A stretch of DNA of 64,000 bases, from positions 64,001 through 128,000 of the forward strand of contig PLCF01000085.1 of the NCBI GenBank assembly GCA_003135555.1, written 5' to 3'. Position 1 is the stretch's first letter, and every line of letters starts with the position of its first letter. Below the pieces are notes generated by a model. The model was not told the DNA's origin and did no database searches. It saw only the letters and a list, made by a program, of their open reading frames with translations. Positions 8,711-26,021 of the stretch are shown one piece after another. The DNA comes from Vulcanimicrobiota bacterium. GTDB taxonomy: Bacteria > Vulcanimicrobiota > Vulcanimicrobiia > Vulcanimicrobiales > Vulcanimicrobiaceae. The position numbers and the translations under genes are program-made.

Positions 8711-11700
8711 TTAGGTCGCTGCCGAGACCGCTTCCGCGACCGCGCGGTTGAACGGCAGCGCCAGATACGCCGCGCGCGTGGCCGCATCGTCGATTGCGGT
8801 CGCGCGTGCGCGCATCACCGAGTTCGCCTGTCGCAACAGCGTGCGCGCCGCGCTGCTGCGGTCGCAGGCGAGCTCGACCTGCGCCGCCGCCCAGAGCCAC
8901 TCGGTCGGCTGCGGCGCCAACTTCGGATTGGTCGCGTAGAGCGTCATGAGCTCGCCCGCGGTGCGCCGCGCGGCGTCTCGATCGCCGGCGCGCACGTAGG
9001 CCTCGGCGAGCGCGCACAGGTTGTCGCCCAACCGCGGCGTCTCACCGGCCGGCCGGCGCAATTCGACCGCGCGGCTGAGGTGCGCGATCGCGTCGGCGTG
9101 CTCGCCCAGCCCGCTCTCCGCGGCGCCGAGCGTCCCCAGGGCGGCCGACTCGAGGTGCTGGGAGTTGATCGCGCGTGCCAGCACCAGCGCTTGGGCCGCG
9201 CAGTCCTTGGCTTGGTCGAGCTCGCCGCGCAGCCGCCGGCAGTAGCTCGAGTCGATGCGCTCGACGCAGGCCACGAACCGCGACCCGATCTCGCCGGCGA
9301 GCTCGCGCGCCCGCGCGTAGAAGTCGATCGCGCGGTCGAGCAGGCCCAGCTCGGTGTGAAACAGGCCGAGGTCGACGAAGATGCTGGCCAATCCGACGCG
9401 GTGTCCGATGCGCTCGTAGATCTCGAGCGCGCGGACGTAGTACGCGTCGGCGTCGGCGACGCGGAACGTGTACACCAGCCCGTTGGCCATCGTGTGCAGC
9501 GCCAGCGCCTCGCCTTCGCGGTCGCCGATCGCGTGGCTGACCTCGTGCGCCTCGGCCGCGAATCGCGACATCGCCGCATAGTCCTGCTGCGCGAGCGCGG
9601 CCCGCGAGAACGCGATGAGCGTCCGCACCAGCGCGCCTTGGTCGCCGTCGGATTGCACCGCGGCGCGCAGCTCGTCCAGCGCGCGGTACGCCTCGTCGAG
9701 CCGGCCTTCGTAGATATAGGTGTCGGCCAAGGCCAGACGCGCGTTGGCGTGCGCGCTGCGGTCGCCGCTGCGCTCGGTGAGCTCGATCAGCTCGCCGAAC
9801 GCCGCGCGCGCCGCGGCGAAGTCGTTGATCGCGCGCCGGTACCGTGCCTCGGCCTCGAGCCAAGCGCCCAGCCGCCGCACGTCGCCCGAGCGGCGCACGC
9901 GCCGTCGCAGCAACGCCAACAAAATGCGCTCGCGCCGCCGGTCGCTGGTGACGTTCGCCAGCGCGATGCGCCGCTCCAGAACGGTGCAAACGGCATCCTC
10001 GTCGTCGATCGCCGCGGCCAGCTGCGCCAGCTCGTCGGCGATGCGCCCCTGCAATTCACGATCGCCGTCGGCCGCGGCGATCCGTTCGCGCAGCAGCAGC
10101 GCCTCGAAGCGCAAACGGCGCGAGGTGCTCAGCGCCAGCACGCGCGCGAGGTGGCGCCCCGCGTCGGCGTTGCCGTAGACCTCGAGCGCGCGCCGTGCCG
10201 CGGCAAGATAGTGCTCCGCGGCGATCTCGGGCTCGCCGCCGCGATCCCAATGCAGCGCCAGCTCGGCCGCGACGTCGTCGCGCCGGTCCGCGTAGAGCGT
10301 CGCCATCACGTGCGCGACGCGGCGGTGCCGGCGCGCGCGCGCGGCGGGTGCGACGTTCTCGTACACCAGCGCCTGGATCAGGTGGTGGCTGAACGCGTAG
10401 TCGAAGCCGCTGCGCGTGCCGCGCTCGGCGACGATGCGGCGATCGATCAGCTCGCCCAGCGCGTCGAGCACGGCAGCTTCGAGCCAACCGGTCGTCTCGC
10501 GCAAGAGCTCGACGTCGAAGCCGCGGCCGATGACCGCCGACACCTCCGCCAACGTCTTCGCCGCGTCGCCCAGCCGGGCCAGACGTGCGGTCAGCACGCT
10601 GCGCAGCGCCGGGGGTACGCCGCCCGCGGGCTCGTCGAGCGACCAGCGGCCGGAGCTGTCGTGCAGCCGTCCGGACTCGCCGAGGTCGCGCAAGATCTCT
10701 TCGAGGAAGAACGGGTTCCCGTCGCTGCGGTCGTGCAGCGTGCGCGCCAGCTCGACCGGATCATCGACCTCGCCGAGCGCGCGAACGAGCGCCTCGACGT
10801 GCTCGCGACCGAGCCGCGCCAGCGCCACGTGCGACGCGGCCCCTTCGCGTTCGAGGTGCCGCCGCAAGGCGCGCAGCTGATGCGCCGGTTCGAGCTCGTC
10901 TTCGCGGTAAGTGGCGACGAGCAGCACGCGGCTGCGCACGCAGCCGCGTGACAGGTGCTCGAGCAAGCTCAGCGTCGCGGCGCCGGCCCAGTGGACGTCC
11001 TCGATGACCAGCACCACCGGCCGGCGCGTCGCGATCGCTTCCCACACCCTGGTGCAGGCCTCGAACAGGCGCAGACGCTCGCGCTCGGGATCGACGGCCG
11101 GCAACGCCGGTACGTCACGCGCGTGCGCGCCGATCGACGGAGCCAACGCCGCGAGCGCGCCCAGCCACAACGGATCGACCGCGACGCCGGCAGTCAACGG
11201 CGCGACGACTCGCAACAATCCCACGAAGGGCTCGTAGGGGATCGTCTCGGGGAAGGTCGTTCCGGCGCCGTACGTCTGCGCGCCGTGCGCCTCGCACTCC
11301 GCCGTGAACTCGCGCACGAGGCGCGTCTTGCCGATCCCGGCCTCGCCACCGACGAGCACCAAACCGCCGTGGCCCGCCGCTGCGGCCTCCCAGCGCTCGC
11401 GCAGGGCGGCCAGCTCTGCGGCGCGTCCGACGAACGGCAACGACGAGATCGTCGCGCCCGGGCTGCGCAGCAACGGCCCTGGCGCCGGCGCGGGCGCCGG
11501 AGCGGCGTCGCGCGCGATCGCTTCGTACACCGCGAGCGTCTCAGCCATCGGGTCGGTTCCCAGCTCGTCGCGCAACGCCTGGGCGAAGCGCTCGTACTCC
11601 GCCAACGCGCCGGCCCGATCGCCGGCTTCGTGGTGCAAGCGGATCAGCGTGCGCAGCACGTCCTCGCGCCACGGATCGTGCGCGAGCAGGCGCACCGCGG

Positions 11701-12214
11701 CGGCGATCGCCGGCGCGTAGTCGCGCGCCGCGCTCAAGCGCGCGATCAGCGTGCCGAGCGTTTGCAGGTACAGCGCGCGCAAACGGGCGCGTTCCGCGTC
11801 GAGCCACTCGTCGTCGACGTCCGCAAGCAGGTCGCCGGCATAGAGTGCGACCGCATCCGCGAGGCGCTGCGGGATCGCCGCGAGGTGCTCGAACTCGGCC
11901 ACGTCGAGCCACAGATCGGCGCGCGGATTCCACTGCAACTGGCCGGCCGATGCCAGCACCCAGGGCTCGACTGCGGCCGGCGGCAACACGGCCTGCAGGT
12001 AGTTGAGGTGACGGCGCAGGTTGGCCCGCGCTTCGTCTTCGCCATCGTCGGGCCACAGGGCGTACGCGACCGCGCGGCGCGGCATCGGCGCCCGCCGGTG
12101 CACGAGCAAGTATGCCAGCAGCGGCACGACCTTGGGCCGACCGGCGACGGAGAGCGGGTCGTCGTCGAGCAACAACCGCGGACGCCCGAACAGGTGAACC
12201 CGCAGCATGAGCAC
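8711..12214 (-). CDS. AfsR/SARP-family regulator (wHTH-BTAD-AAA ATPase-TPR)
   Basis: LLAYLLVH...LWPD..ARANLRRHL; BTAD (DPWRE...LGTDPMAET); FVGRAAEL, GEAGIGKT Walker A, VIEDVHW Walker B; TPR C-terminus. Confidence 0.92.
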   Translation of the reverse strand: MLMLRVHLFGRPRLLLDDDPLSVAGRPKVVPLLAYLLVHRRAPMPRRAVAYALWPDDGEDEARANLRRHLNYLQAVLPPAAVEPWVLASAGQLQWNPRADLWLDVAEFEHLAAIPQRLADAVALYAGDLLADVDDEWLDAERARLRALYLQTLGTLIARLSAARDYAPAIAAAVRLLAHDPWREDVLRTLIRLHHEAGDRAGALAEYERFAQALRDELGTDPMAETLAVYEAIARDAAPAPAPAPGPLLRSPGATISSLPFVGRAAELAALRERWEAAAAGHGGLVLVGGEAGIGKTRLVREFTAECEAHGAQTYGAGTTFPETIPYEPFVGLLRVVAPLTAGVAVDPLWLGALAALAPSIGAHARDVPALPAVDPERERLRLFEACTRVWEAIATRRPVVLVIEDVHWAGAATLSLLEHLSRGCVRSRVLLVATYREDELEPAHQLRALRRHLEREGAASHVALARLGREHVEALVRALGEVDDPVELARTLHDRSDGNPFFLEEILRDLGESGRLHDSSGRWSLDEPAGGVPPALRSVLTARLARLGDAAKTLAEVSAVIGRGFDVELLRETTGWLEAAVLDALGELIDRRIVAERGTRSGFDYAFSHHLIQALVYENVAPAARARRHRRVAHVMATLYADRRDDVAAELALHWDRGGEPEIAAEHYLAAARRALEVYGNADAGRHLARVLALSTSRRLRFEALLLRERIAAADGDRELQGRIADELAQLAAAIDDEDAVCTVLERRIALANVTSDRRRERILLALLRRRVRRSGDVRRLGAWLEAEARYRRAINDFAAARAAFGELIELTERSGDRSAHANARLALADTYIYEGRLDEAYRALDELRAAVQSDGDQGALVRTLIAFSRAALAQQDYAAMSRFAAEAHEVSHAIGDREGEALALHTMANGLVYTFRVADADAYYVRALEIYERIGHRVGLASIFVDLGLFHTELGLLDRAIDFYARARELAGEIGSRFVACVERIDSSYCRRLRGELDQAKDCAAQALVLARAINSQHLESAALGTLGAAESGLGEHADAIAHLSRAVELRRPAGETPRLGDNLCALAEAYVRAGDRDAARRTAGELMTLYATNPKLAPQPTEWLWAAAQVELACDRSSAARTLLRQANSVMRARATAIDDAATRAAYLALPFNRAVAEAVSAAT

Positions 12215-15082: not shown

Positions 15083-16759
15083 CTAGCGGACCACCAGACC
15101 GGCGCTGAGCGCGCGGCTGGCGTCGGCGCGAAGATAGGACGCCGCGGTGAGCGCGTAGCGTGCGCCCAGCGGAATGCGCACGCTGCCCTCGATGCTGCCG
15201 CCCCGCAACACCAGATCGAACCGCGTCGGCGCGTCCCAGGTGAGCCAGGCGACGTCGCGGTAGAAGCGGCGGCGAATGGTGATCGTGTCGAGCGGTCCGC
15301 CCGGATAGAGCGGCGCGGTCGCATCGAGCATGTCGCCGTCGCGCACCGTCCACGCGCGCACCGAGAGGCGCGGTGCCAACTCCCAGCCCAGCGATGCGGC
15401 GAAGCCGCGGTTCACCGCCGTCGGCGCCAGGTCGCCCTCGGTGTACGACACCACCGACGCTTGCAAGCGGTGATGATCGGAAAACGCGATTCCGAACTCA
15501 CCCAACGATCCCCGGGCCAGCGCGTAGCCGGGGGTGCCCAAGGTGGACGCACCGGCCCCCGCGTGCAGCGTCACGTTGCTGCCCAGCGGCGCGTCGATGC
15601 CCAGCGAGGGCAGCAGCGAGTACGCCGAGCTGGCCCCGTTGCCGTAGTTGTGCTCGTCGCCGTACGCCAGCGCGAGCGCGGCGCTGACGCGCACGACGTT
15701 GCCGCGCGCGGTGCCCAGGACGAGCGCCGCGTCGTGGTGTTGCGCGTCGGCGCTGCCGAAGTTGAGGCGCTCGCTGCGAAACCGGGCCCGTACCGCGATC
15801 GCATCGGGGCCGCGCCCGGTCGCATCGAAGGACGCATCCGCGACGCTCCCGGAGTCGCGCGACGCACCCAGCGCGTCGGCGTTGTCGGTCGTGAGCGCGA
15901 ATCGCGCCGCGATGTCGATGCGCTGCGTCGCCGTGTTGAAGTTGGCGCCGGCACCGGAGTAGTGCACGCCGGGAGCGTCGCCGACCACGGCTACGACGCC
16001 GGCGGTAACCGGGCCGATGACGTCCGAGGCGTGCGCCGCGACGAGCCGGCGCGGGCCGTCGGAATCCCACGAGGTCGCGGCCAGCACCGCGGTGCGCGTT
16101 CCGATCCGCAGCGCGGCGTCGCCGTTGGTCGCCCGCGCCGTGTCGAGCCGGTCGAACAGCCGCGCATCGATCACGCCGCCGCCGCCGCGATCGCCGTACC
16201 ACGGTGCTTCGAGCGCACCGTGCACGTCGAGCGCTCCGATCGCGTGCGCGGGGAGCAGGCTCGTCGTGTCGCCGCCGTCGCCGCGGCGATAGAACGGAAG
16301 CTCCTCGACCGTGGCGACGCCGTGGCCGCGCGAGAGCCAGCGGTCGCTTACGGCCGTCGGAAAGGCCACCCGGTAGGGCACGACGGAGGCGATCGCGGCG
16401 AACGTTCCGGCCGGGAGCGCGGCGATGTCGGCGGCCGTCGGGACGCGGTCGGCCGCCCGGTGGCGGCGCACGATCCCGGCCACCGGCGAACCGTCGGCCG
16501 GGACCGCGATGCGCAGCGGCTCGGCGTTGTCGGCGGTCACCAAAACGGCCGCCGGCCGGGCGGGGGTAGCGAGGGCGAACGTACCGTCGCGGGCCGTGCG
16601 GTCGCGCGCGAGCACCGTTCCCTGGGCGTCGAGGGCCGCGACCCGCGCCCCCACGACGACCGCGCCGTCCTGGTCGCGCAGCGCTCCGACGAGCAGTTCG
16701 TCGGCCGCCGCCGGCGCCTGCGCTCCGCAGGCGAGCAGCGTGACCAGAACCCCTTTCAT
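15083..16759 (-). CDS. outer-membrane protein: carboxypeptidase-regulatory-like domain, degenerate TonB-receptor plug, beta-barrel
   Basis: GALRDQDGAVVVGARV...TARDGTFAL; IGALDVHGALEAPWYGDRGGGGVIDAR resembles the plug C-terminal motif; alternating beta strands; start uncertain. Confidence 0.6.
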   Translation of the reverse strand: MKGVLVTLLACGAQAPAAADELLVGALRDQDGAVVVGARVAALDAQGTVLARDRTARDGTFALATPARPAAVLVTADNAEPLRIAVPADGSPVAGIVRRHRAADRVPTAADIAALPAGTFAAIASVVPYRVAFPTAVSDRWLSRGHGVATVEELPFYRRGDGGDTTSLLPAHAIGALDVHGALEAPWYGDRGGGGVIDARLFDRLDTARATNGDAALRIGTRTAVLAATSWDSDGPRRLVAAHASDVIGPVTAGVVAVVGDAPGVHYSGAGANFNTATQRIDIAARFALTTDNADALGASRDSGSVADASFDATGRGPDAIAVRARFRSERLNFGSADAQHHDAALVLGTARGNVVRVSAALALAYGDEHNYGNGASSAYSLLPSLGIDAPLGSNVTLHAGAGASTLGTPGYALARGSLGEFGIAFSDHHRLQASVVSYTEGDLAPTAVNRGFAASLGWELAPRLSVRAWTVRDGDMLDATAPLYPGGPLDTITIRRRFYRDVAWLTWDAPTRFDLVLRGGSIEGSVRIPLGARYALTAASYLRADASRALSAGLVVR

Positions 16760-16786
16760 GAACGCTTCACGAGCATGGTGTAGCAT
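16755..16786 (+). promoter_or_regulatory. half copy of the putative response-regulator operator plus -10 box
   Basis: TTCA-N7-TTCA (16755-16769), 11 nt, then TAGCAT; same spacing as at 18496 and 20138. Confidence 0.45.
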
Positions 16787-16793
16787 GGTCGGC

Positions 16794-17027
16794 ATGAGGA
16801 GCTTCGGGCGCTGGGCGATCGCCGGGGTGCTCGCGCTCGGCGCGTGTGCCGGTGCCGCCGCAGGCGCGGAGCTCCTGCTCGACGACCCGGCCTCGCTGGT
16901 CGTCAGCGCGCCTCCTGCGCTGCTCGGGCCCATCAACGAAGGCGGCCGTTCCGGTTGGAACTGCCCGCCCGAACGCGCGGCGCTCGCGCGTACCGCCGCC
17001 GCCGCAGCAGCTCTCCCGCGCGAGTGA
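16794..17027 (+). CDS. small secreted hypothetical protein
   Basis: MRSFGRWAIAGVLALGACAGAAAGA signal-like start; stop 1 nt before the next ATG. Confidence 0.55.
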   Translation: MRSFGRWAIAGVLALGACAGAAAGAELLLDDPASLVVSAPPALLGPINEGGRSGWNCPPERAALARTAAAAAALPRE

Positions 17028-17028
17028 C

Positions 17029-17832
17029 ATGAGGGGCCTGGCCGTCGCGTCGCTGCTCGCGTTCGCCGTGGCGTCCGCGGTAGCATCGGCGCAATCCTAC
17101 CCTGGTCCGGGCGCACCGTCCCGCTCGACCGACGCCCGCACGCTGCTCGAACAGGCGCGCGACCGGGAGGTCCACGAGCGCTTCATGCGCGGGGTAAGCG
17201 CCGAGGAGCGGGGCGACTGGAAGGCCGCGGTCGCGGAGTTCCGGCGTGCCGTCATGCTCGACTTGCCCGAACCGCGCGGCTCGACGGCGCGCTACGACCT
17301 CGCCTTGGCCGAGATGCACGTGGGTCACGCCGACGACGCCGCGACATTGCTCGAGGAGGCGCTCCATCGTGATCCGCGTTTCGCGGCGGCGGCGGCGAAC
17401 CTCGTTGCGGTCCAACTCTTTCGCGGCGACCTGGCGGCTGCGCGCCGCGCCGCCGACCGGTTTTTGGAGATCGCGCCGAGCTCGGTCTTGGCACGTTACG
17501 GGCGCGGCCTGACCGCACTGCGCGCCGGCGACATGGCCACCGCGCGGACCGATTTTCGCGCGCTCATCGACGCCGACCCCGCCTACGCCCCCGCCCATTA
17601 CGATCTCGCGCTGGTAGAGTTGCGCGCCGGACGCGACGAGGCTGCACGCGCCGAGCTCGAGCACGCGCTGGCGCTTTCCCCGGGCTACGCGCGCGCGCGT
17701 TTCGCGCTGGGCACGGTGTTGATGCGCGACGGCCGGCGCGCCGACGCGCGCGTCGCATTCGATCGCTGCGCTCGCGACGCCGCAGATCCGGTGCTGCGCG
17801 CGCTCGCCATCGATCTGCGCGACAAGCTCTAA
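17029..17832 (+). CDS. secreted tetratricopeptide repeat protein
   Basis: Signal peptide; repeated TPR units (ARYDLAL, AAANL, AHYDLAL, ARFALGTVL). Confidence 0.85.
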   Translation: MRGLAVASLLAFAVASAVASAQSYPGPGAPSRSTDARTLLEQARDREVHERFMRGVSAEERGDWKAAVAEFRRAVMLDLPEPRGSTARYDLALAEMHVGHADDAATLLEEALHRDPRFAAAAANLVAVQLFRGDLAAARRAADRFLEIAPSSVLARYGRGLTALRAGDMATARTDFRALIDADPAYAPAHYDLALVELRAGRDEAARAELEHALALSPGYARARFALGTVLMRDGRRADARVAFDRCARDAADPVLRALAIDLRDKL

Positions 17833-17848
17833 CAGCCGCGGGCCGCTG

Positions 17849-18445
17849 TCAGCCGTGGCGGGACGCGGCGCGTAGGTAGCCCAGCAGCTCGCCGTCGGCG
17901 CTCGTCGAGAGCATCACCAGACGCGCCGGCAGACCGTGCGCGTCGAGGACGTACGCGAACGTGCCGTGGAATTGCCCGTCGAGCCGCGCGACGTTGAACG
18001 CATCGAGCAGCGCGCGGACGTCCGCCGGCCGTCCGCTGGCCCAGCGCCACCGCCCCGCATCGGCGTGAAAGCCGCGCGCCAAGCCGGCCATCGCGATCGG
18101 CGGATCGTGCTCGGGGTCCAGCGTCACGGTGAGCAGGCGCGCATCGATACGACCGCGCCCCAGCGCGGCGGAGAGCCGCGCGAAGAGCGCCTCGGCGATC
18201 GGGCAAGCGTCTCCGCAGCGTGCCGCGACGAAGATCACGGCCGTCGGGCGGCGCAAGTCGCGCAGCGTGAAACGCGCTCCGTTCTGATCGATCAACGGGA
18301 TGTCGCGCGCGTCGCGAGGGACGCCGGCGCCGGCGCGCGCCGGGTGGGCCGGAACCGCCGCCTGCGTCCCCGCCGGAGCCCCGAGCGACGCCGCGAACGC
18401 CACGGCGAGGGCGGCGACTGCCCGCCGGATGCGCTGCGGGAACAT
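17849..18445 (-). CDS. SCO family copper chaperone
   Basis: LIDQNG, CGDACP (CxxxC), VTLDPEHD, conserved His in FHGTFAYVLD; GGAGG RBS. Confidence 0.9.
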   Translation of the reverse strand: MFPQRIRRAVAALAVAFAASLGAPAGTQAAVPAHPARAGAGVPRDARDIPLIDQNGARFTLRDLRRPTAVIFVAARCGDACPIAEALFARLSAALGRGRIDARLLTVTLDPEHDPPIAMAGLARGFHADAGRWRWASGRPADVRALLDAFNVARLDGQFHGTFAYVLDAHGLPARLVMLSTSADGELLGYLRAASRHG

Positions 18446-18495
18446 GGCTACCTCCACCGGTGAGTGCGCATCGGGCTTAGGCTAGGCACGCGCGC

Positions 18496-18542
18496 TGAGG
18501 CGCAGATGAAGCGATCGCCGCGGCGCTTTCAGGAAGTCTTCA
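18496..18542 (-). promoter_or_regulatory. 47-bp four-box operator, copy 1 (sco / response-regulator divergent promoter)
   Basis: Minus strand reads TGAAgacttccTGAAagcgccgcggcgatcgcTTCAtctgcgcCTCA, then 11 nt and TAGCCT; 31/47 identical to 20138-20184. Confidence 0.7.
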
Positions 18543-18581
18543 CACAACGGAGCTTGCGCGCAGGGAGCGAAACGACGAAGC

Positions 18582-19250
18582 GTGCGCATCCTCGTGATCG
18601 AAGACCAGCGCGAGATCGCCGACGCCGTGCGCGCGATGCTCGAACGGCGCAAGTACGCCGTCGACGTCGCCGGCGACGGTGAGAGCGGCTTCGACATGTT
18701 ACTGCGCGGCACGTACGATGCGGCGATCATCGACGTGGTCCTACCCGGGCGCGACGGTTTTGCGCTGTGCCGCGATGCACGCGCCGACGGAGTCTCCACG
18801 CCGGTCCTCTTTCTGACGGCTCGCGATGCGGTCGAGGACCGCGTGCGCGGTCTCGACGCGGGCGCCGACGACTACCTGGTCAAGCCCTTCGTCGAAGACG
18901 AGCTCGCGGCGCGGTTGCGCGCGCTGCTGCGCCGCGGCGCGCTGCCGATCCACGCCACCCTCGCCGTCGGCGACCTCGTCGTCGACCGCGGTGCGCGTGC
19001 GGTGCGCGTCGCGGGCCGCGAGGTCCCCCTGGGCGCGACCGAGTTTCGGCTCATCGAGTATCTGGCCGCCAACGCGGGGATCGCCGTCACGCGAGCGCAG
19101 ATTCTCGAGCGCGTCTGGGGCGACGATTTCGACGGGTCGAGCAACGTCGTCGACGTCTACGTCAGCGCGGTCCGCAAGAAGCTCAACGCGGTCGGCGCGC
19201 CGAACCGTATCGCGACGGTGTGGGGAGTGGGGTACTCATTGCACTCATAG
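18582..19250 (+). CDS. OmpR-family response regulator
   Basis: MRILVIED, IIDVVLPGRDG, LTARD, GADDYLVKPF, VDVYV, TVWGVGY. Confidence 0.95.
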   Translation: MRILVIEDQREIADAVRAMLERRKYAVDVAGDGESGFDMLLRGTYDAAIIDVVLPGRDGFALCRDARADGVSTPVLFLTARDAVEDRVRGLDAGADDYLVKPFVEDELAARLRALLRRGALPIHATLAVGDLVVDRGARAVRVAGREVPLGATEFRLIEYLAANAGIAVTRAQILERVWGDDFDGSSNVVDVYVSAVRKKLNAVGAPNRIATVWGVGYSLHS

Positions 19251-20140
19251 TCGCGCGGCTGTGCGCATCCTATTTGGCGATCCTGGTCGTCGTGCTCGTC
19301 GTCGTCGACGTCGCCGCGTACCTCTACTTGGCCGCGCACCAGCGCGATCTGCTCCAGCCGATCCTGAGCACGCCCGAAGGCTCAGCCGTCTATGCCGCGC
19401 AGCTGCGCAAGATCGCCTTGGGGCTCGCGCTCGCCGACCTACCGGTGCTCGTCGTCGCCGGCGCGGCGGCTTACGCGCTGGCGCTGATCTCGGTGCGGCC
19501 GTTGGTCGCCGCCCGGGAACGTGAGGCGCGCTTCGCCGCCGAGGCGGCTCACGAGCTGCGCACGCCGCTGGCGCAGATCGCGAGCATCGCGCAGATCGCC
19601 CACGGCACCAACGCCGACGACGCTCTGGCGCGCATCGCGGCGCTGGCGCTCGATGCCTCGGGCACGATCAGCGATCTGCTCGCGCTCGTCCGTGAGGAGC
19701 GCGTCGCGCCCAAGCTCTCGGAGCCGGTCGATCTCGGTGCGCTGGCGCGCTCGGCGGTCGAAGGGTGGCGCCGCGACGGGCTTCGCTACGACCTCACCGC
19801 CTCCGAGCAGTGCTGGGTCGAAGGCGACGAACGGCGCTTGCGGCGCCTGGCCGAGAACTTGCTCGATAATGCCGGGCGGCACGCGCGCACCCAGGTCCTG
19901 GTGCGCGTCGCGCCCGACGGTGCACGCATCGCGCTCAGCGTCGAAGACGACGGGCCCGGGGTTGCACCCGAGTTGCGCGAGCGCATCTTCGAGCGCTTCG
20001 TGCGAGCCGACGACGACGATCGCGGTAGCGGCCTGGGACTGGCGATCTGCCGCGCGATCGCGCGCGCGCACGGCGGCGATCTCGTGCTCGAAGACCGCAG
20101 CCGCTTCGTGGCCCGCCTCCCGAGATTCGAAGTAACGTGA
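19220..20140 (+). CDS. sensor histidine kinase (2 TM, short periplasmic loop)
   Basis: AAHELRTPL, NLLDNA, VEDDGPG, GSGLGLAI; start codon uncertain. Confidence 0.9.
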   Translation: MGSGVLIALIVARLCASYLAILVVVLVVVDVAAYLYLAAHQRDLLQPILSTPEGSAVYAAQLRKIALGLALADLPVLVVAGAAAYALALISVRPLVAAREREARFAAEAAHELRTPLAQIASIAQIAHGTNADDALARIAALALDASGTISDLLALVREERVAPKLSEPVDLGALARSAVEGWRRDGLRYDLTASEQCWVEGDERRLRRLAENLLDNAGRHARTQVLVRVAPDGARIALSVEDDGPGVAPELRERIFERFVRADDDDRGSGLGLAICRAIARAHGGDLVLEDRSRFVARLPRFEVT

Positions 20141-20201
20141 AAGCTTTCTGAAGGCGTCGCGCGATCGGCTTCATGCGGCTCTCAGGGCCGCAGTCGAGGA
20201 T
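20138..20201 (+). promoter_or_regulatory. 47-bp four-box operator, copy 2, plus -10-like box (cupredoxin-cytochrome operon)
   Basis: TGAAagctttcTGAAggcgtcgcgcgatcggcTTCAtgcggctCTCA (20138-20184), then 11 nt and GAGGAT. Confidence 0.7.
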
Positions 20202-20207
20202 CGATCG

Positions 20208-20660
20208 GTGCGAATCACTTCGCTCCTCCTTGTCTTGGGATTGGCTGGTTGCACTCCCGGTGCGCCGCCCGCCGGAACCGGGACCGCCGCCGCGGCGACG
20301 ACGATGATCGACGTCTCACTCACGTCGTCGACCGCCGTCGCGACGGCGTTCGGGAGCGCGGGCGGCTTTTCGCCTTCCATCACCACCGTCGCGCTCGGCT
20401 CGACCGTGCGCTTCGTGAACGTCGACTCGTTCGCGCACACCGCATCGTCGTTCGGCGGCGCCGCATTTCCGGCGGCGTCGCCGCTGGGCGCCGCGGCGCT
20501 CACCACCTCGGGCGCGACCCTCTCGGGCGGCTGGACCAGCGGCGCGCTGGGCGCCGGCGATGCGTCGCCGGTGCTAGTCGCCGACAAGCTCGGCACCTAT
20601 CTGTACGGTTGTTTCTTCCACTACGGCGCGCCGATGCGGGGCGCCATCGTTGTGCAGTAG
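20208..20660 (+). CDS. cupredoxin (type-1 blue copper) lipoprotein
   Basis: Lipobox LAGC; GFSPSITTV, VRFVN..FAHT, YGCFFHYGAPMRGAIVV (His, then C-x2-H-x4-M ligands). Confidence 0.88.
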   Translation: MRITSLLLVLGLAGCTPGAPPAGTGTAAAATTMIDVSLTSSTAVATAFGSAGGFSPSITTVALGSTVRFVNVDSFAHTASSFGGAAFPAASPLGAAALTTSGATLSGGWTSGALGAGDASPVLVADKLGTYLYGCFFHYGAPMRGAIVVQ

Positions 20661-21786
20661 CCGCGCCGCTCTCGCGGCGCTGAGCCTCGCCGCGGTCGCG
20701 GCATTGGCGCCGCAGCCGGCGCACGCGGTCCCGCTGTTCGCGCAGCGCTACAACCTGCAGTGCGGCGCCTGCCATTCGGTGCTGCCCGAGCTCAACGCGT
20801 TCGGCAACGCCTTTCGCGAGCGCGGCTACCGGCTCGACGGCGCGCCCAAGCACGGTACGACGATCGTGGCGCTGCGCGAGCAAGTCGGCTACGTGAAGGA
20901 CCCCACCGACGGAACGACGCGGCGGGTGACGCCAGCGGGTGCGATCCTCGGCGCGGTCGAGGTCGGGCGCGTCGAAGCCTTCGTGCACGAGAGCCTGGGC
21001 AGCGGCGGCGGCCCGTCCTCGCTGTTCTTGGGCTATCTCGCCTACGGCGATGCGCACTCGGGGGTGCTCTATCGGGCCGGATTGATGGAGCTGCCGCTGA
21101 TCCATTCGCCGGGGCAGCGCAACGACACGCTCACGACCTACGGCTACGAAGGGACGCTCACCGGCCTCAACGACCTGTCGCTGGCGACGCCGCGCTGGGG
21201 CTTCGAAGCGGAGCGCAACGTCGGCGCCGGGCGCATCAGCGCGACGCTGGCGGTGGCCAACGGCGGCGGATCGGCCTACGGCGGGAAGCCCGTCTCGACG
21301 GGCCGCTCGGAGTCGTTCGCCGCGCCGGAGCTCGGCCTGTACGCGCGCTTTCCGGTGCTCGACGACGTGCACGTCGGCGTCGACGCGCTCTCCGGCTCGC
21401 GCTCGATCGGGGTGAGCGCCCGGCCGGCGTTCGACGACCGGTACACTCGCCTGGGCACCAACCTCGAGGCGCGCCGCGGACGGCTCGAGTTTCTGGCCGA
21501 GCAATGGTGGGGCCGCGACTTCAACGCCGACGGCGGCGGCAACCGTCTCGACTCGGACGGCGGTTTCGTGCGCCTGCGCTGGCGGCTCGGCTCGCATGCG
21601 TACCTAGGGGTCCGCGAGGACGGCGCCGCGGCGCCGGCGGCGACTCGGTCGCTGCTCTGGTACGCCGAGGCGCACGTGACGCCGCATGCGCGGGTGCTGA
21701 TCCAGCAGCGCCGGACCATCCCCGGCGGCCCCACCACCCTCGAGGGTGCGCTGACCATCGGCATCCCCTGGCCGCGCGGCCAGTGA
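20650..21786 (+). CDS. Cyc2-like fused monoheme cytochrome c / porin
   Basis: Signal peptide ending AHA; VPLFAQRYNLQ-CGACH-SVLPELNAFGNAFRERGY; remainder is amphipathic beta strands. Confidence 0.75.
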   Translation: MCSSRAALAALSLAAVAALAPQPAHAVPLFAQRYNLQCGACHSVLPELNAFGNAFRERGYRLDGAPKHGTTIVALREQVGYVKDPTDGTTRRVTPAGAILGAVEVGRVEAFVHESLGSGGGPSSLFLGYLAYGDAHSGVLYRAGLMELPLIHSPGQRNDTLTTYGYEGTLTGLNDLSLATPRWGFEAERNVGAGRISATLAVANGGGSAYGGKPVSTGRSESFAAPELGLYARFPVLDDVHVGVDALSGSRSIGVSARPAFDDRYTRLGTNLEARRGRLEFLAEQWWGRDFNADGGGNRLDSDGGFVRLRWRLGSHAYLGVREDGAAAPAATRSLLWYAEAHVTPHARVLIQQRRTIPGGPTTLEGALTIGIPWPRGQ

Positions 21787-21900
21787 AGGCGCGCGCTCTC
21801 TTAGGCCGTTTCCTGGTATAAGGCGAGCAACCGGAACGAAACCGGCTCGGTGCGCGCGGCGTCGAAGACGATGTCACCGCCCGAACCCTTGGAGCGCCTC

Positions 21901-22686
21901 ATGCTCGCGACACCAGCCCTTCGTTACATCACGGTCGAAGCCGTCGACGGCGTTGCGGTCGTCACGCTGAACCGGCCCGAAAAACGCAACGCGCTCTCGC
22001 TCGATGTCATGGGCGAGCTGATGGCCAGCTTCGAAGCGATCGGCGCCGACCGCACGCTCAAGGTCGTGATCCTGCGCGCGCTCGGGCCGGCCTTCAGCGC
22101 CGGGCACGATCTGCGCGAGATGCTCGATCGCAGCGTCGCCGAGTACCGCACGACCTTCGACGCGTGCGTGCGGCTGATGGAGACGATCCAGACGATCCCT
22201 CAGCCGGTGATCGCCGAGGTCGCCGGGGTCGCCACGGCCGCCGGCTGCCAGCTCGTCGCGACCTGCGATCTCGCGGTGGCGTCCGCCGCCGCGACGTTCG
22301 CCACGCCGGGAGTGAAGATCGGACTGTTCTGCACCACGCCGATGGTCGCGTTGACCCGCGCGATCGGCCGCAAGCGCGCGATGGAAATGCTGCTCACCGG
22401 CACGCCGATCGACGCGGCGACGGCGGCCGACTGGGGCCTGGTGAACCGCGTCGTCGCGTCCGAGGATTTGGAGCGGACGGTGCGCGAGCTGGCCACCGGC
22501 ATCGCGTCGGCGGCCGGGTTCGTCATCGGGCTCGGCAAGGCGGCCTTCTACGCGCAGATCGATCTCGATCAGCCCAAGGCATACGCCTATGCCAAGGAAG
22601 TCATGTCGATGAACGCGCTGGCCGAGGATGCGCAGGAAGGGATGGGCGCGTTCGTCTCCAAGCGCGCCCCGGCGTGGAAATCCTGA
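21901..22686 (+). CDS. enoyl-CoA hydratase family protein
   Basis: TLNRPEKRNALS, FSAGHDL, ATAAGCQLVATCDL, PGVKIGLFCTTP. Confidence 0.92.
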   Translation: MLATPALRYITVEAVDGVAVVTLNRPEKRNALSLDVMGELMASFEAIGADRTLKVVILRALGPAFSAGHDLREMLDRSVAEYRTTFDACVRLMETIQTIPQPVIAEVAGVATAAGCQLVATCDLAVASAAATFATPGVKIGLFCTTPMVALTRAIGRKRAMEMLLTGTPIDAATAADWGLVNRVVASEDLERTVRELATGIASAAGFVIGLGKAAFYAQIDLDQPKAYAYAKEVMSMNALAEDAQEGMGAFVSKRAPAWKS

Positions 22687-22927: not shown

Positions 22928-24904
22928 GTGACCTACCGCCGCCTCTTGCTGGCCGTCCTTGCGATCGGTCTGATCGCATCGTTGTATGTCGCCGCACGGC
23001 GCGAGCGGCACGAGCACCGGGCCAACCGGGTCGAGATCGTGATGGACGACGCCGACTTCGTGTCGCTCGCGCGTTCGTACGCCTACGATCAGCGGGCGTT
23101 TCTCGTCGCGCTGCGGCAGGCCGGGCTGACCTCGCTCGCGGTCCAAGAAGAATTGGGCGGTCAGGTCGCGGTCTCGCCGAGCGCGGCGCTCTACGCCGGA
23201 ACGGCCTTGCTGGCCCAAGCGCGGCTGACCGGGTTCCGCGATCCGGTCTTCGCGCGGCTCGCCGTGCACGGCATCCGCAGCGACGAAGTGTATCTCGTCG
23301 CCTACGATCGCGAGACCAGCGCACGCTACGGCCGCCAGCTCGCGCTCAAGTTTTCGAAGCGCGCGGTGCGCGTGCTGCGCGCCGGCGTTCCGGCGGTGTA
23401 CGCGATCCGCACGCAACCGGATTACTTCGCGACCGTGGGGCTGGGTTTGCCCGGCGACCGCGTCGCGCTCGCGCACGAGCTCGGCCTCAAGCTCGTCCCG
23501 CGGCTGCAGAACGACGAACGCTTCAAGCCGCCGCAGATCGGCGCGCTGCTCGGCGACGCCGTCGAGCACCACGACGCGCACACGGTCGTGTTCTTCGGTC
23601 TGCGCAACCAGGTCGTCGGCTACCCCAACGCGATCGACGCGACCGCCGCCGTCATGCACGCCGCCAAGCTCACCTTCGGAACCGTCGAGACCTACGACGT
23701 CAAGCAGAACCAAGCCGGCAGCGAGGCGCTGGCCAAGGATCTCCCCGACGCGACGGTGCGCGTCCAGGCGATCGCCAAGACCGAACAGGACAAGCTGCGT
23801 CCCGAAGAGATCGTGCAACGCTACGAGCTGGGCGTGCGCGAGCGCAACGTGCGCGTGGTCTATCTGCGGCCGTTCGCGCACCAGTGGGACGAGCGTTCGA
23901 TCGAAGCGTCCAACGTCGAGATCGTCCGGCAGATCGCCGCGGGCGTGCGCGCGGCGGGGCTGCGCGTCGGCTCTGCCTCGCCGTTCGAGCGCTTCGTCAC
24001 CCGGCCGTGGGAGATCGCGCTCGCGTCGCTCGCCGTCCCGGCGATCCTGCTGTTGCTGTTGGCCGAGTTCGGCATCGGCGACCGGCGTTGGCTGGTCGGG
24101 TTTGTCATCGTCGACGTCGCGCTGGTGTTGGCGGGTTTCGCGTTGCACCACGACATGGCGGTCCGCAAGGTCCTCGCCCTGGCCGGCGGGATCGCCTTTC
24201 CGGTGGCAGCGTTCGCGGCGATCGCCCCGGCGTTCGGCGCCGCGCGAGCGAGCTCGACGGGCGGGGCGTTCCTCGACGGCGTGCGCGTCCTGGTCATCGC
24301 CACGTTGGTCGCCCTGTGCGGTGCGCTCGTCGTGGTCGGGCTGCTGTCGACGCCGCTGACGATGACCGAGATCGACCGCTTCAGTGGCGTCAAACTGGTG
24401 TTGGCCGTGCCGCCGCTGGCGTGTCTGCTGCTGTACTTGTTCACGCCGCGCTGGGGCTCCAAGCTCACGCCCACGACGCTGAGCGAAGCGCCGGTGACGG
24501 TGCTGCAACTCGTCGCCGGGCTCGTGCTGCTGGCCGCGGGGTATCTCGTGCTGGCGCGCAGCGGCAACCAAAGCGATATCGCGCCGTCGACGTTGGAACT
24601 CGCGCTGCGCTCGCATCTGAGCACCATCTTGCAAGTGCGGCCGCGCTTCAAGGAGTTCGTCGTCGGCTTCCCCGCCTTGATGCTGCTGCCCGCGCTGGTC
24701 CCGGCCGATCGCGCGCGCTGGGGCTGGCTGTTCGCGCTGGCGATCGGCGTCGGCCTGGCCGACGTGGTCGACACGTTCTCGCACCTGCACACGCACCTCT
24801 CGGTCTCGGTGCTGCGGCTGATCAACGGCGCCGTGATCGGCGTGATCGTCGGTGCGATCGCGATCGTGGCGTACCGCCGCTTCCGCCGTGCCGAGCCCAC
24901 GTGA
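22928..24904 (+). CDS. DUF5693-like membrane protein
   Basis: N-terminal TM, GVRERNVRVVYLRP, FSGVKL, VRPRFKEFVVGFP, DTFSHLHT; adjacent to csaB as is usual for this family. Confidence 0.8.
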   Translation: MTYRRLLLAVLAIGLIASLYVAARRERHEHRANRVEIVMDDADFVSLARSYAYDQRAFLVALRQAGLTSLAVQEELGGQVAVSPSAALYAGTALLAQARLTGFRDPVFARLAVHGIRSDEVYLVAYDRETSARYGRQLALKFSKRAVRVLRAGVPAVYAIRTQPDYFATVGLGLPGDRVALAHELGLKLVPRLQNDERFKPPQIGALLGDAVEHHDAHTVVFFGLRNQVVGYPNAIDATAAVMHAAKLTFGTVETYDVKQNQAGSEALAKDLPDATVRVQAIAKTEQDKLRPEEIVQRYELGVRERNVRVVYLRPFAHQWDERSIEASNVEIVRQIAAGVRAAGLRVGSASPFERFVTRPWEIALASLAVPAILLLLLAEFGIGDRRWLVGFVIVDVALVLAGFALHHDMAVRKVLALAGGIAFPVAAFAAIAPAFGAARASSTGGAFLDGVRVLVIATLVALCGALVVVGLLSTPLTMTEIDRFSGVKLVLAVPPLACLLLYLFTPRWGSKLTPTTLSEAPVTVLQLVAGLVLLAAGYLVLARSGNQSDIAPSTLELALRSHLSTILQVRPRFKEFVVGFPALMLLPALVPADRARWGWLFALAIGVGLADVVDTFSHLHTHLSVSVLRLINGAVIGVIVGAIAIVAYRRFRRAEPT

Positions 24905-24905
24905 C

Positions 24906-26021
24906 TTGCGGTTCTTGATCAGCGGCTACTACGGCTTCGGAAATCTCGGTGACGAGGCGCTCTTGGAGGTGATCGTCGAGCGGCTGCGAGCTCGCTGGCC
25001 CGCCGCTGCGGTCGACGTGCTCAGCGCCGATCCGGCGGGGACTGCGCGCAGCTACGGGGTGGAAGCGACCCCGCGCATGGATCTCGGGCGCGTTCGCGCC
25101 GCGATTGGCCGCGCCGACGTCGTGCTCTCCGGCGGCGGCGGCCTGCTGCAGAACGTCACCAGTCTGGGGAGCCTGCTCTACTACGGCGGCGTGATCCGCT
25201 CGGCGATCCGCGCGAGAAAACCCACCATGGTCTTCGCGCAATCGATCGGCCCGCTCGACTTTTGGGGCCGCGCCGTGGTGCGCACGTTCTGCAAGGGGCT
25301 CAGCGCGGCGACGGTGCGCGACGAACGGTCGCGCGCGCTGCTCGGCGAGCTGCTTCCCGGGACACCGGTCGAGCGGACCGCCGATCCCGTCTTTCTCATC
25401 GATCCGGCGCCCGAGCCGCTCGATCTGGCCAGCGAAGGCCTGGGCGATTCCGACGCGCCGCTGGTGGTCGTCGCGGTCCGCAAATGGCAGGGCGCCGAAA
25501 CGACCGCGCGTACGCTGGCGGCGGTCGTCGACCATCTGGCCGCCGTGCACGGCGCGCGCGTCGCCTTCCTCCCCTTCGGCGGCCCGCCCGACGCCGAGGT
25601 CGCTACCACGATCATCCGGCGCTGCGCCTCGACGCCGGTGCTGCTGCCGGACTACCCGCTCGCGCAAGCGGCCCAGGTCGTCGCGCGCGCCGCGCTGGTC
25701 GTCGGGATGCGACTGCACGCGCTGGTCCTCGCCGCGCGATTGGGCGTCCCCTTCCTCGCCATTTCGTACGATCCCAAAGTCTCGGCGCTGCTCGAAGACT
25801 TGCGCTACCCCGCCGGTCCGCTGTTCGTTCCGGGCCGGCCGCCTCCGGCCGCCGACGCGTTGCTGGGGCGCGTCGACGATGCTTGGCGGCGCCGCGACGA
25901 GCTGGCCGCGCATTTGCGCAGCGTCCGCCCCGAAATCGAGCGGCTCGCCGAGCGCAACTTCGACGTGCTTGGCGAACTTGTGACACGCACGACACGCGAG
26001 GCGGCGGGAACCGAGGGCTGA
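24906..26021 (+). CDS. csaB: polysaccharide pyruvyl transferase CsaB
   Basis: LISGYYGFGNLGDEALL, SGGGGLLQNVTS, AQSIGPL, VRDERS, GMRLHA, SYDPKV. Confidence 0.9.
   Translation: MRFLISGYYGFGNLGDEALLEVIVERLRARWPAAAVDVLSADPAGTARSYGVEATPRMDLGRVRAAIGRADVVLSGGGGLLQNVTSLGSLLYYGGVIRSAIRARKPTMVFAQSIGPLDFWGRAVVRTFCKGLSAATVRDERSRALLGELLPGTPVERTADPVFLIDPAPEPLDLASEGLGDSDAPLVVVAVRKWQGAETTARTLAAVVDHLAAVHGARVAFLPFGGPPDAEVATTIIRRCASTPVLLPDYPLAQAAQVVARAALVVGMRLHALVLAARLGVPFLAISYDPKVSALLEDLRYPAGPLFVPGRPPPAADALLGRVDDAWRRRDELAAHLRSVRPEIERLAERNFDVLGELVTRTTREAAGTEG

Follow-up and report, generated by a model that had tools for sequence, protein, structure and literature searches.

The question raised by this locus is whether a short protein that joins one c-type heme motif to a predicted outer-membrane barrel belongs to the Cyc2 family of fused cytochrome-porins, and what such a protein would do beside a blue copper protein, a copper chaperone, and a two-component system. 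The locus occupies positions 15083–21786 of a 64-kb stretch of contig PLCF01000085.1 from a Vulcanimicrobiota bacterium (hereafter "the window", i.e., the whole 64,000 nucleotides analyzed), in high-GC DNA (about 0.62–0.74). Seven genes were read there: an outer-membrane protein (OMP), a TPR-repeat protein, an SCO-type copper chaperone, an OmpR-type response regulator (RR) and histidine kinase (HK), a lipoprotein cupredoxin, and the 378-aa cytochrome-porin ("the porin"), whose closest relatives carry the source names Candidatus Elarobacter, Eremiobacteraeota, and Vulcanimicrobium alpinum. Overall, the porin can be placed in the Cyc2 superfamily and its gene stands next to that of a cupredoxin wherever its orthologs were examined, and we give an even chance to the reading that the whole module conducts electrons across the outer membrane from a reduced metal ion (Fe2+, possibly Cu+) and passes them via the tethered cupredoxin into the aerobic respiratory chain.

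The porin starts with MCSSRAALAALSLAAVAALAPQPAHA/VPLFAQRYNLQCGACHSVLPELNAFGNAFRERGY; its hydrophobic N-terminus is a signal peptide that ends, by eye, at AHA/VP (in the structural model, a helix over residues 3–19 followed by a low-confidence linker), and contains a single CxxCH formed by C38, C41, and H42. These three residues are invariant in 44/44 aligned relatives, as are F30, G52, G144, and G249, and A26, P28, P46, L48, N49, and F55 are nearly so (P46 and L48 in ≥90% of rows); at the level of loci, a single CxxCH with P[LIV]FAQRY was present in 24/24, window included. Given this invariance, the CxxCH is not a chance occurrence. An AlphaFold2 model built from the 44-row alignment (mean predicted local distance difference test, pLDDT, 84.0; predicted template modeling score, pTM, 0.79) has 16 strands between residues 71 and 374, and a Foldseek search with this model returned 278 matches at E ≤ 0.001, including 16-strand general porins at E about 1e-10, with Campylobacter MOMP, Omp36, Omp32, and OmpF among the matches. 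A preliminary description of the locus, made from its letters alone, had proposed a CxxCH motif followed by a beta-barrel-like remainder, and both the conservation of the motif in orthologs and the modeled barrel support it. Pfam and NCBIfam scans gave no family for the porin at E ≤ 0.01 (a chance zinc-ribbon row appeared at E ≤ 1), and sequence searches of the PDB with the protein and its profile gave no relative (streptavidin noise at E 0.03–0.9). Relatives were found in larger collections: 424 at E ≤ 0.001 among 8000 candidates scored in a 90%-clustered collection, the best 120 of which were 63–93% identical, and 1641 at E ≤ 0.001 in a library of 1.84 billion representatives (80 at E ≤ 1e-10 and 17 at E ≤ 1e-30), most of the weaker library matches covering residues 8–65 only. 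The C-terminus of the Eremiobacterota porin clade (21766–21786 in the window, and loci L004–L026) reads G(F/V/I)PWPxx(L/K/R/Q), replacing the terminal aromatic residue of most relatives with the canonical Cyc2 motif, which may reflect a different barrel-assembly signal in the phylum.

As defined in the published account of the family (Keffer et al. 2021, PMC8406198), a Cyc2 protein has a signal peptide, one CXXCH with AXPXFAR[Q/K][T/Y] upstream and PXL downstream of it, a 16-strand porin, and a length of ≥365 aa (the FeGenie rule); the same account reports that sequences without PXFAR[Q/K][T/Y] were removed from the published tree. The porin has the signal peptide, the single CXXCH, the PXL (reading H42-S-V-L-P46-E-L48), a predicted 16-strand barrel, and 378 residues. 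Its motif differs, reading AVPLFAQRY: the A-x-P-x-F-A part and the final Tyr are retained, Gln stands in the place of Arg and is itself followed by Arg, and QRY is found in all 138 close relatives fetched. With FAQRY, the porin therefore drops out at the strict PXFAR[Q/K][T/Y] filter, and the P-x-FAR signature given in the preliminary description has to be corrected to P-L-F-A-Q-R-Y.

To collect Cyc2 references, the published motif was turned into a degenerate DNA pattern, with which species-representative genomes were scanned. The pattern matched at least 119 stretches, and from the 80 loci listed we took 72 complete proteins of ≥365 aa (three were dropped as cut by contig ends and five as shorter than 365 aa), including proteins of metagenome-assembled genomes (MAGs) labelled Mariprofundus, Zetaproteobacteria, and Acidithiobacillus. 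Among the matches listed, 72/72 references matched the porin, almost only over the N-terminal cytochrome segment (e.g., 42% over 57 aa at E 2e-13 for a Mariprofundus MAG protein, and 29% over 65 aa at E 3e-5 for an Acidithiobacillus MAG protein). Profile–profile alignment with hhalign linked the porin clade to the 72 motif-bearing proteins with 99.7% probability (E 3.4e-26, 307 columns), and after removal of the cytochrome part the barrels aligned collinearly over 246 columns (78.5%, E 1.7e-5). Together with the CxxCH and the barrel model, this profile-level homology bears out the Cyc2-type fused cytochrome-porin that had been proposed, and on sequence grounds the porin is a member of the Cyc2 superfamily. 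A quick tree built with IQ-TREE from 70 rows (the query, 8 clade members, a paralog from the same genome, 20 unnamed representatives, and 40/72 references, the other 32 having been left out at random) recovered the Eremiobacterota porins as one branch with support 100, inside a 28-row short-form set of unnamed metagenome proteins and the paralog (SH-like approximate likelihood ratio test, SH-aLRT, 94). This tree, which is unrooted, has long branches, and includes no Leptospirillum-type (Cluster 3) reference, indicates separateness from two validated groups and not a cluster assignment.

The gene that overlaps the porin gene by 11 nt encodes a small protein with a lipobox (LAGC, Cys15) and a flexible linker to about residue 30; Lgt is encoded in the window. 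It matches PF00127 (Copper-bind; E 9.4e-5, 23.2 bits, cut-off 21.2), and its ligands H77, C135, H138, and M143 align in register with those of plastocyanin, with the spacing H...C-x2-H-x4-M. In an alignment from which one row (locus L011), with a C-terminus without Cys/His ligands, had been dropped beforehand, all four copper ligands were invariant in 30/30 cupredoxins and Cys15 was present in ≥90%. In the genome concerned (G199, loci L011 and L032), the Cys/His ligand stretch of the cupredoxin gene is missing in a frameshift-like manner, and the neighboring porin gene is intact. The AlphaFold2 model of the cupredoxin (pLDDT 89.4; residues 31–150 above 96, linker residues 16–30 low) has as its top Foldseek matches plastocyanin (8.8e-7), pseudoazurin, amicyanin, AcoP, and auracyanin, all of which are electron carriers. 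The lipobox, family match, and plastocyanin alignment confirm a lipoprotein cupredoxin with a full His/Cys/His/Met type-1 site, as first described. A complex prediction of porin residues 27–378 with heme and cupredoxin residues 16–150 scored 0.06 and 0.00, with a mark of 0.32, and carries no weight either way.

Next, we evaluated how widely the porin occurs and how constantly it is linked to its neighbors, using 201 sampled genomes from the phylum. A porin match at E ≤ 1e-10 was found in 114/201 genomes: in the window's own family (f1) the gene was detected at this threshold in 96/113 genomes (79/113 at E ≤ 1e-50), in a second family (f2) in 3/3 (2/3), and in a third (f3) in 14/15 (11/15; the f3 counts include one genome, G128, flagged unpublished), with 0/69 genomes of 18 other families at either threshold. 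In 23/23 loci with 1.5-kb flanks, the porin gene is immediately preceded by the cupredoxin gene in the same orientation, and the pair is present in 18/18 loci with about 7-kb flanks (11 from f1, 1 from f2, and 6 from f3), i.e., in all 41 relatives' loci examined. In f1, the order across 11 loci compared with the window is OMP<, TPR>, SCO>, cupredoxin>, porin>, RR>, HK> (arrowheads giving gene direction), and the same genes are rearranged in the window's genus as TPR>, SCO<, RR>, HK>, cupredoxin>, porin>, with the SCO gene divergent from the RR/HK pair. SCO, TPR, RR, and HK genes occur in 12/12 f1 loci, window included (one SCO lies about 3.8 kb away), and an OMP homolog adjoins the TPR gene in 9/12 oriented f1 loci, window included. 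The single f2 locus holds RR, HK, TPR, cupredoxin, and porin, with no SCO match, and the six f3 loci hold the cupredoxin-porin pair alone, with no two-component system within 7 kb in 6/6. Since the f3 loci keep the pair without the other module genes, the pair is the core, around which the f1 family has built a regulated module. The conserved unit with a cupredoxin proposed in the preliminary description thus withstands the synteny check, and the SCO gene and the RR/HK pair belong to it throughout the window's family (11/11 further f1 loci and the window); the word "compact" does not hold, as the TPR and TonB-receptor-like OMP genes (15083–17832) are also part of the conserved, box-marked set.

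This marking consists of a direct repeat, TTCA-N7-TTCA, that was spotted by comparing the intergenic regions of the module. The pattern occurs three times in the 64-kb window, each time in the module (Boxes 1–3, Table 1), with 0.39 matches expected and three reached in 1/100 shuffles; in the genome as a whole there are 30 matches versus 15 for a reversed control pattern. Across 13 oriented loci (205 kb), 19/22 matches fall within the module's 17.7 kb of intergenic DNA, versus 0/1 for a control of the same composition; at least one module box is present in 11/13 of these loci, and a box at the Box 1 position in 9. Three congeneric genomes retain Box 2 along with the CACACAACGG that follows it. 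These enrichment figures are somewhat overstated, because the loci come from relatives that do not count as independent and because intergenic DNA has a lower GC content. Sites of the OmpR/PhoB family have an 11-bp period, and we infer that the repeat is a putative site of the module's own regulator; a shared repeat in the intergenic regions of the unit fits the dedicated regulation first suggested. With the boxes placed 5–56 nt before start codons, repression or short leaders would fit better than classical activation. No coherent gene set emerged at the 27 other matches in the genome, where gene calls were crude and "intergenic" is unreliable (neighbors scanned included a P-type ATPase, AhpC, a CMD-family protein, and a TIR protein), and a scan of 16600–22000 for sigma-70 promoters and terminators found nothing above shuffles. 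The box-bearing OMP is probably a regulon member: it matches PF13620 at E 4.7e-6, below the cut-off, and its language-model features reach 0.92 to CarboxypepD_reg+Plug clusters, a lead only. After Box 3, in the HK-cupredoxin spacer (20138–20185), lies an inverted TGAAG-N14-CTTCA; in a congener the inverted repeat is retained as TGAAC...GTTCA, with changes on both arms and an 8-bp stem, so that a hairpin is possible, as is a palindromic site.

The direction in which electrons would pass through this pair can be approached from the partners of its relatives. For the nearest outside clade, which bears a FAHRY motif, 80 metagenome loci were fetched. A cupredoxin of the Eremiobacterota type lies upstream in 1/49 loci with ≥600 nt upstream, and in 19/52 loci with ≥600 nt downstream the porin gene is directly followed, on the same strand, by the gene of a three-domain multicopper oxidase, whose start often overlaps the porin stop (Pfam confirmed 4/4 scanned); an SCO homolog is present in 8 of the 19 multicopper-oxidase loci. 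A multicopper oxidase is an electron sink to O2, so this partnership in the sister clade argues for inward flow, from heme to copper to O2. The window's own genome holds a paralogous pair on another contig (C16, L028:1390-4778, minus strand), in which a cupredoxin with a CuA-like C-x3-C-x3-H-x2-M site (PF13473, E 1.5e-9) accompanies a 407-aa Cyc2-like protein reading PTFGEAY...CSQCH, together with a 140-aa protein without family and an OmpR-type RR. Taken together, this suggests that the short-form sector of Cyc2 has been wired repeatedly to copper centers, i.e., a type-1 cupredoxin, a CuA-like cupredoxin, and a multicopper oxidase, often with SCO.

Flow in the opposite direction would take respiratory or photosynthetic electrons via cupredoxin and heme out to an external acceptor, e.g., Fe(III), Cu(II), Mn(IV), or humics, in the service of respiration or of reductive metal uptake; in a photoferrotrophic variant, the pair would instead feed a photosynthetic reaction centre. 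A single heme in a pore can in principle work both ways, a TonB-receptor-like uptake protein is co-marked by the box, and some relatives are phototrophs. Against this stand the multicopper-oxidase coupling of the sister clade and the fact that all characterized Cyc2 members, as described in the available text of two reports, act as Fe(II) oxidases (PMC8406198, PMC13647500), and we consider outward flow highly doubtful. The reaction-centre link was rejected on distribution: Photo_RC genes occur in only 12/201 genomes, the window's own genome (84% complete) not being among them, and an orthologue-grade porin is present in only 2 of these 12.

The other copper-related parts of the module raise the possibility of copper homeostasis in the manner of Pco/Cop, in which the pore would admit or release copper, the cupredoxin and SCO would bind or oxidize Cu(I) or supply cuproenzymes, the two-component system would respond to copper, and the heme would serve only Cu(I) oxidation, or Cu(II) reduction for uptake. 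The SCO chaperone, which is part of the module in 12/12 f1 loci, fits this. It has an N-terminal anchor, CGDAC-P, and a distal His in FHGTFAYVLD, the CxxxC and the His being kept in 12/12 aligned orthologs. A second SCO, fused to a CusF-like domain, is encoded beside a caa3-type oxidase operon elsewhere in the genome (contig C8, L027:4914-12805; COX2 fused to a cytochrome c domain, COX1, and COX3, with a 798-aa CarboxypepD_reg protein nearby), which makes the SCO of the module an additional and presumably dedicated one. In loci L010, L012, L013, L018, L024, and L030 (L030:4744-5530) a second lipoprotein cupredoxin gene, absent from the window, directly precedes the SCO gene (with C-x2-H-x5-M in L030), and in locus L036 (L036:6809-7759, genome G036) the SCO frame runs into a cupredoxin frame without a stop, which may be a natural fusion or an assembly error.

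The regulators are more ambiguous. The best NCBIfam rows of the RR are both sub-threshold (RppA, 205.8 bits with a cut-off of 250; heavy-metal TIGR01387, 189.2 with a cut-off of 279.2) and barely exceed PhoB (178.9), and the HK reaches 102.5 against the heavy-metal TIGR01386 cut-off of 292.55, over its cytoplasmic part only. The top rows of the pair, RppA/RppB and the CztR/CopR and CztS/CopS types, favor copper handling, but they score hardly above PhoB, RstB, and MtrB and far below the heavy-metal cut-offs, so the pair is not classed as a copper sensor. It likewise lacks the periplasmic metal-binding sensor domain of CopRS-, CusRS-, and CzcRS-type systems. The cupredoxin has an intact electron-transfer type-1 site in a plastocyanin-like fold, Met/His-rich Cu(I)-trafficking motifs were found in no module protein, family scans detected no copper efflux genes within the 64-kb window, and a heme fused to the pore is no known trait of copper-resistance systems. 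On the other side, the TonB-receptor-like OMP shares the box, and the sister clade, coupled to a multicopper oxidase and SCO, recalls Pco/Cop copper resistance, which comprises the multicopper oxidase PcoA, the outer-membrane barrel PcoB, PcoC, and PcoRS. The module shares with that system an outer-membrane barrel and a periplasmic copper protein under an adjacent OmpR-type two-component system, to which the sister clade adds the multicopper oxidase; it differs in the heme motif of its barrel, its redox type-1 copper site with no Met-rich Cu(I) site, and its kinase without a periplasmic sensor domain, and the likeness is one of description. In addition, the text available of a survey of Cu/Ni tailings reports that Baltobacteraceae dominated some samples (PMC13594681). 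Weighing both sides, we regard copper homeostasis as rather unlikely.

The kinase bears on a further alternative, i.e., that the locus is a trans-envelope redox or metal sensor, in which the heme-porin would sample the outside, the tethered cupredoxin would report to the kinase, and the regulator would set the regulon. The HK has two membrane helices around a loop of only about 28 residues, and family scans detected neither a periplasmic sensor domain nor HAMP. Among 13 sequences, the P of an LxP motif is present in 12 and TPE in 8, and the loop holds no conserved His, Cys, or Met; with such a short loop lacking metal ligands, the kinase would need an accessory sensor. The two-component system stays with the pair throughout f1 and is marked by its own boxes, the paralogous C16 pair also adjoins an OmpR-type RR, and an iron-sensing role for Cyc2 has been floated in part of the literature (PMC11429942). 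However, all six f3 loci keep the pair without a two-component system nearby, the sister-clade partner is an enzyme and not a signaling part, and contact between cupredoxin and kinase is hypothetical. We therefore rate such a sensor as highly improbable, and as very unlikely a relay in which the heme-porin sets the oxidation state of the cupredoxin, which would be the missing input of the kinase, the Cyc2-like protein then acting as an antenna for gene regulation instead of, or besides, being an energy-yielding oxidase.

In the electron-conduit reading that we favor, the 378-aa protein would be exported, receive one c-type heme, and be inserted in the outer membrane as a 16-strand porin with its heme-bearing N-terminal segment in or at the barrel. 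Genes for Omp85/BamA, a cytochrome c assembly protein, and COX2 are present in the genome, and the outer membrane of the cultured relative is described as typical (PMC9758169). The heme would take up one electron from a reduced metal ion that reaches the pore. Fe2+ is the most likely and default substrate given the homology with Cyc2, and Cu+ would be chemically possible; members of three Cyc2 clusters are reported to oxidize Fe(II) (PMC8406198), as are newer Cyc2 proteins according to the accessible parts of two further reports (PMC13647500, PMC13692758). From the heme, the electron would pass to the type-1 copper of the cupredoxin, which is tethered through a lipid anchor and a roughly 15-residue linker, and on to an aerobic terminal oxidase, for which the caa3-type enzyme, with its own cytochrome c domain on subunit II, is a candidate. 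The SCO paralog of the module would supply or prepare copper for the cupredoxin, and the OmpR-type regulator and its kinase without sensor domain would switch the whole set (OMP, TPR, SCO, RR-HK, cupredoxin, and porin) on or off through the TTCA-N7-TTCA repeats.

Several observations weigh against this reading. The porin lacks the strict FAR[Q/K][T/Y] motif, and in the unrooted tree the short-form set lies outside both the FARQT clade with Acidithiobacillus and Ralstonia (support 100) and the FARKY assemblage with Mariprofundus. The gene is near-universal in f1, and the published description of the cultured relative, as far as its text was available, makes no mention of iron oxidation, "iron" occurring once, in the reference list (PMC9758169). 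Loci with the canonical Cyc2 motif mostly have mono- or multiheme cytochromes c as neighbors, not cupredoxins, and PF00127 was detected in only 3 of them (150 of 164 called neighbor open reading frames scanned). The kinase has no recognizable metal-binding loop as judged from its family scans and alignment, and the boxes lie closer to the start codons than a classical activator site, which may indicate repression or another factor. Finally, an SCO protein with a Cop/Cus-like regulator pair would equally suit copper handling, and the caution of the preliminary description, that iron oxidation is unproven and a copper role possible, still holds. The three PF00127 cases just mentioned are all CarboxypepD_reg + Copper-bind fusions (L073, L084, and L114, in Solibacteraceae, Binatia, and Syntrophobacteraceae MAGs), with an N-domain type that is also found on the OMP of the window's module.

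Among known systems, the porin is closest to Cyc2 itself, which includes A. ferrooxidans Cyc2, Mariprofundus Cyc2PV-1, and Leptospirillum Cyt572 (Keffer et al. 2021, PMC8406198, as far as its text was available). Signal peptide, single CxxCH, A-x-P-x-F-A, P-x-L, modeled 16-strand barrel, a length of ≥365 aa, and full-length homology at the profile level are shared. The porin differs in its size (378 aa versus 473–474 aa for the Mariprofundus and Acidithiobacillus MAG proteins), its FAQRY motif and separate clade, its C-terminal PWPxxx instead of a final aromatic residue, and its setting, with a constant cupredoxin, SCO, and an OmpR-type two-component system; in motif-bearing loci, cytochromes c are the usual neighbors, with a sigma-54 regulator in some. 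In A. ferrooxidans, as reported in the accessible part of one source, Cyc2 hands electrons to the cupredoxin rusticyanin, with an aa3-type oxidase beyond, and the rus operon (cyc2-cyc1-cup-coxBACD-rus) likewise links a Cyc2-type protein to a type-1 cupredoxin (PMC13741234); AcoP is among the structural matches of the module cupredoxin. Unlike the rus operon, the module has no cytochrome c4 or oxidase genes and includes SCO and a two-component system, its cupredoxin is plastocyanin-like and lipid-anchored and is not rusticyanin, and it occurs in Eremiobacterota of soil and peat, not in an acidophilic autotroph. The auracyanins of Chloroflexus and Roseiflexus are also small type-1 cupredoxins with an N-terminal membrane anchor (structural matches at E 3e-5 to 4.5e-5), but plastocyanins and pseudoazurins score better, and the module does not track phototrophy.

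The lineage is less unexpected than first stated, since a Cyc2-like gene in one UBP12 MAG (Eremiobacterota) is already in print (PMC8357290, in the part available). The accessible main text of the tailings survey predicts Baltobacteraceae to be iron oxidizers, and the available text of its supplement contains no rows for Baltobacteraceae, Eremiobacterota, or Cyc2_repCluster (PMC13594681). In open-access full text, our searches turned up no account of the module or its regulon, nor of the FAQRY subfamily, the box, or the multicopper-oxidase-coupled sister clade.

The features of the locus are collected in Table 1; all those named in the preliminary description were found where it had placed them, and the peptide it printed is exact.

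Table 1 Genes and candidate operator boxes of the module, in window coordinates.
Feature	Position	Strand	Basis or remark
Candidate OMP, 555 aa	15083..16750	-	Signal peptide, CarboxypepD_reg-like N-domain; TonB-dependent-receptor-like (language-model features alone)
Box 1, TTCATGAACGCTTCA	16755..16769	+	Divergent OMP/TPR intergenic region; 5 nt before OMP start codon
Secreted TPR-repeat protein, 267 aa	17029..17832	+	TPR_16 at E 1e-25 and further TPR families; ATG at 17029
SCO1/SenC-type copper chaperone / thiol-disulfide protein, 202 aa	17849..18457	-	PF02630 at E 9.1e-13
Box 2, TTCAGGAAGTCTTCA	18528..18542	+	40 nt before RR start codon
OmpR/PhoB-family RR, 222 aa	18582..19250	+	PF00072 at 1.4e-26, PF00486 at 3.7e-26
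HK, 297 aa	19247..20140	+	HisKA and HATPase_c; start overlaps RR stop
Box 3, TTCAGAAAGCTTTCA	20138..20152	-	Over HK stop codon; 56 nt before cupredoxin start
Lipoprotein type-1 (blue) cupredoxin, 150 aa	20208..20660	+	PF00127 and plastocyanin alignment
Cyc2-family fused monoheme cytochrome-porin, 378 aa	20650..21786	+	Signal peptide, AVPLFAQRY-x3-CGACH-x3-PEL, 16-strand barrel model

The remaining genes of the window are housekeeping genes. Just downstream of the module, at 22928–26021, are two envelope-polymer genes, the first for a DUF5693 membrane protein (658 aa, E 5e-130) and the second for a polysaccharide pyruvyl transferase (PF04230). At 8711–12214, on the minus strand, lies the gene of a 1167-aa regulator with BTAD, AAA_16, and TPR domains, of the large ATP-binding LuxR/SARP-like kind, with no evident link to the module.

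Cyc2 is the main marker by which iron oxidizers are called in metagenomes, and the function of its distant branches is an acknowledged weak point of such calls (PMC8406198). The locus described here defines one such branch, which is near-universal in a dominant family of peat, tundra, and mine-waste Eremiobacterota and which the strict motif filter would not catch. Its genetic wiring, with a cupredoxin, its own SCO, its own two-component system, and a candidate operator, yields concrete and testable predictions. Since the only cultured member of the phylum, Vulcanimicrobium alpinum, encodes a 70%-identical porin ortholog (WPS_30180), the question of whether the module is an iron oxidase, a copper system, or a sensor is directly open to genetics and biochemistry. 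If true, a short-form sector of Cyc2 wired to copper would bear on how Cyc2 matches in soil metagenomes are to be read.

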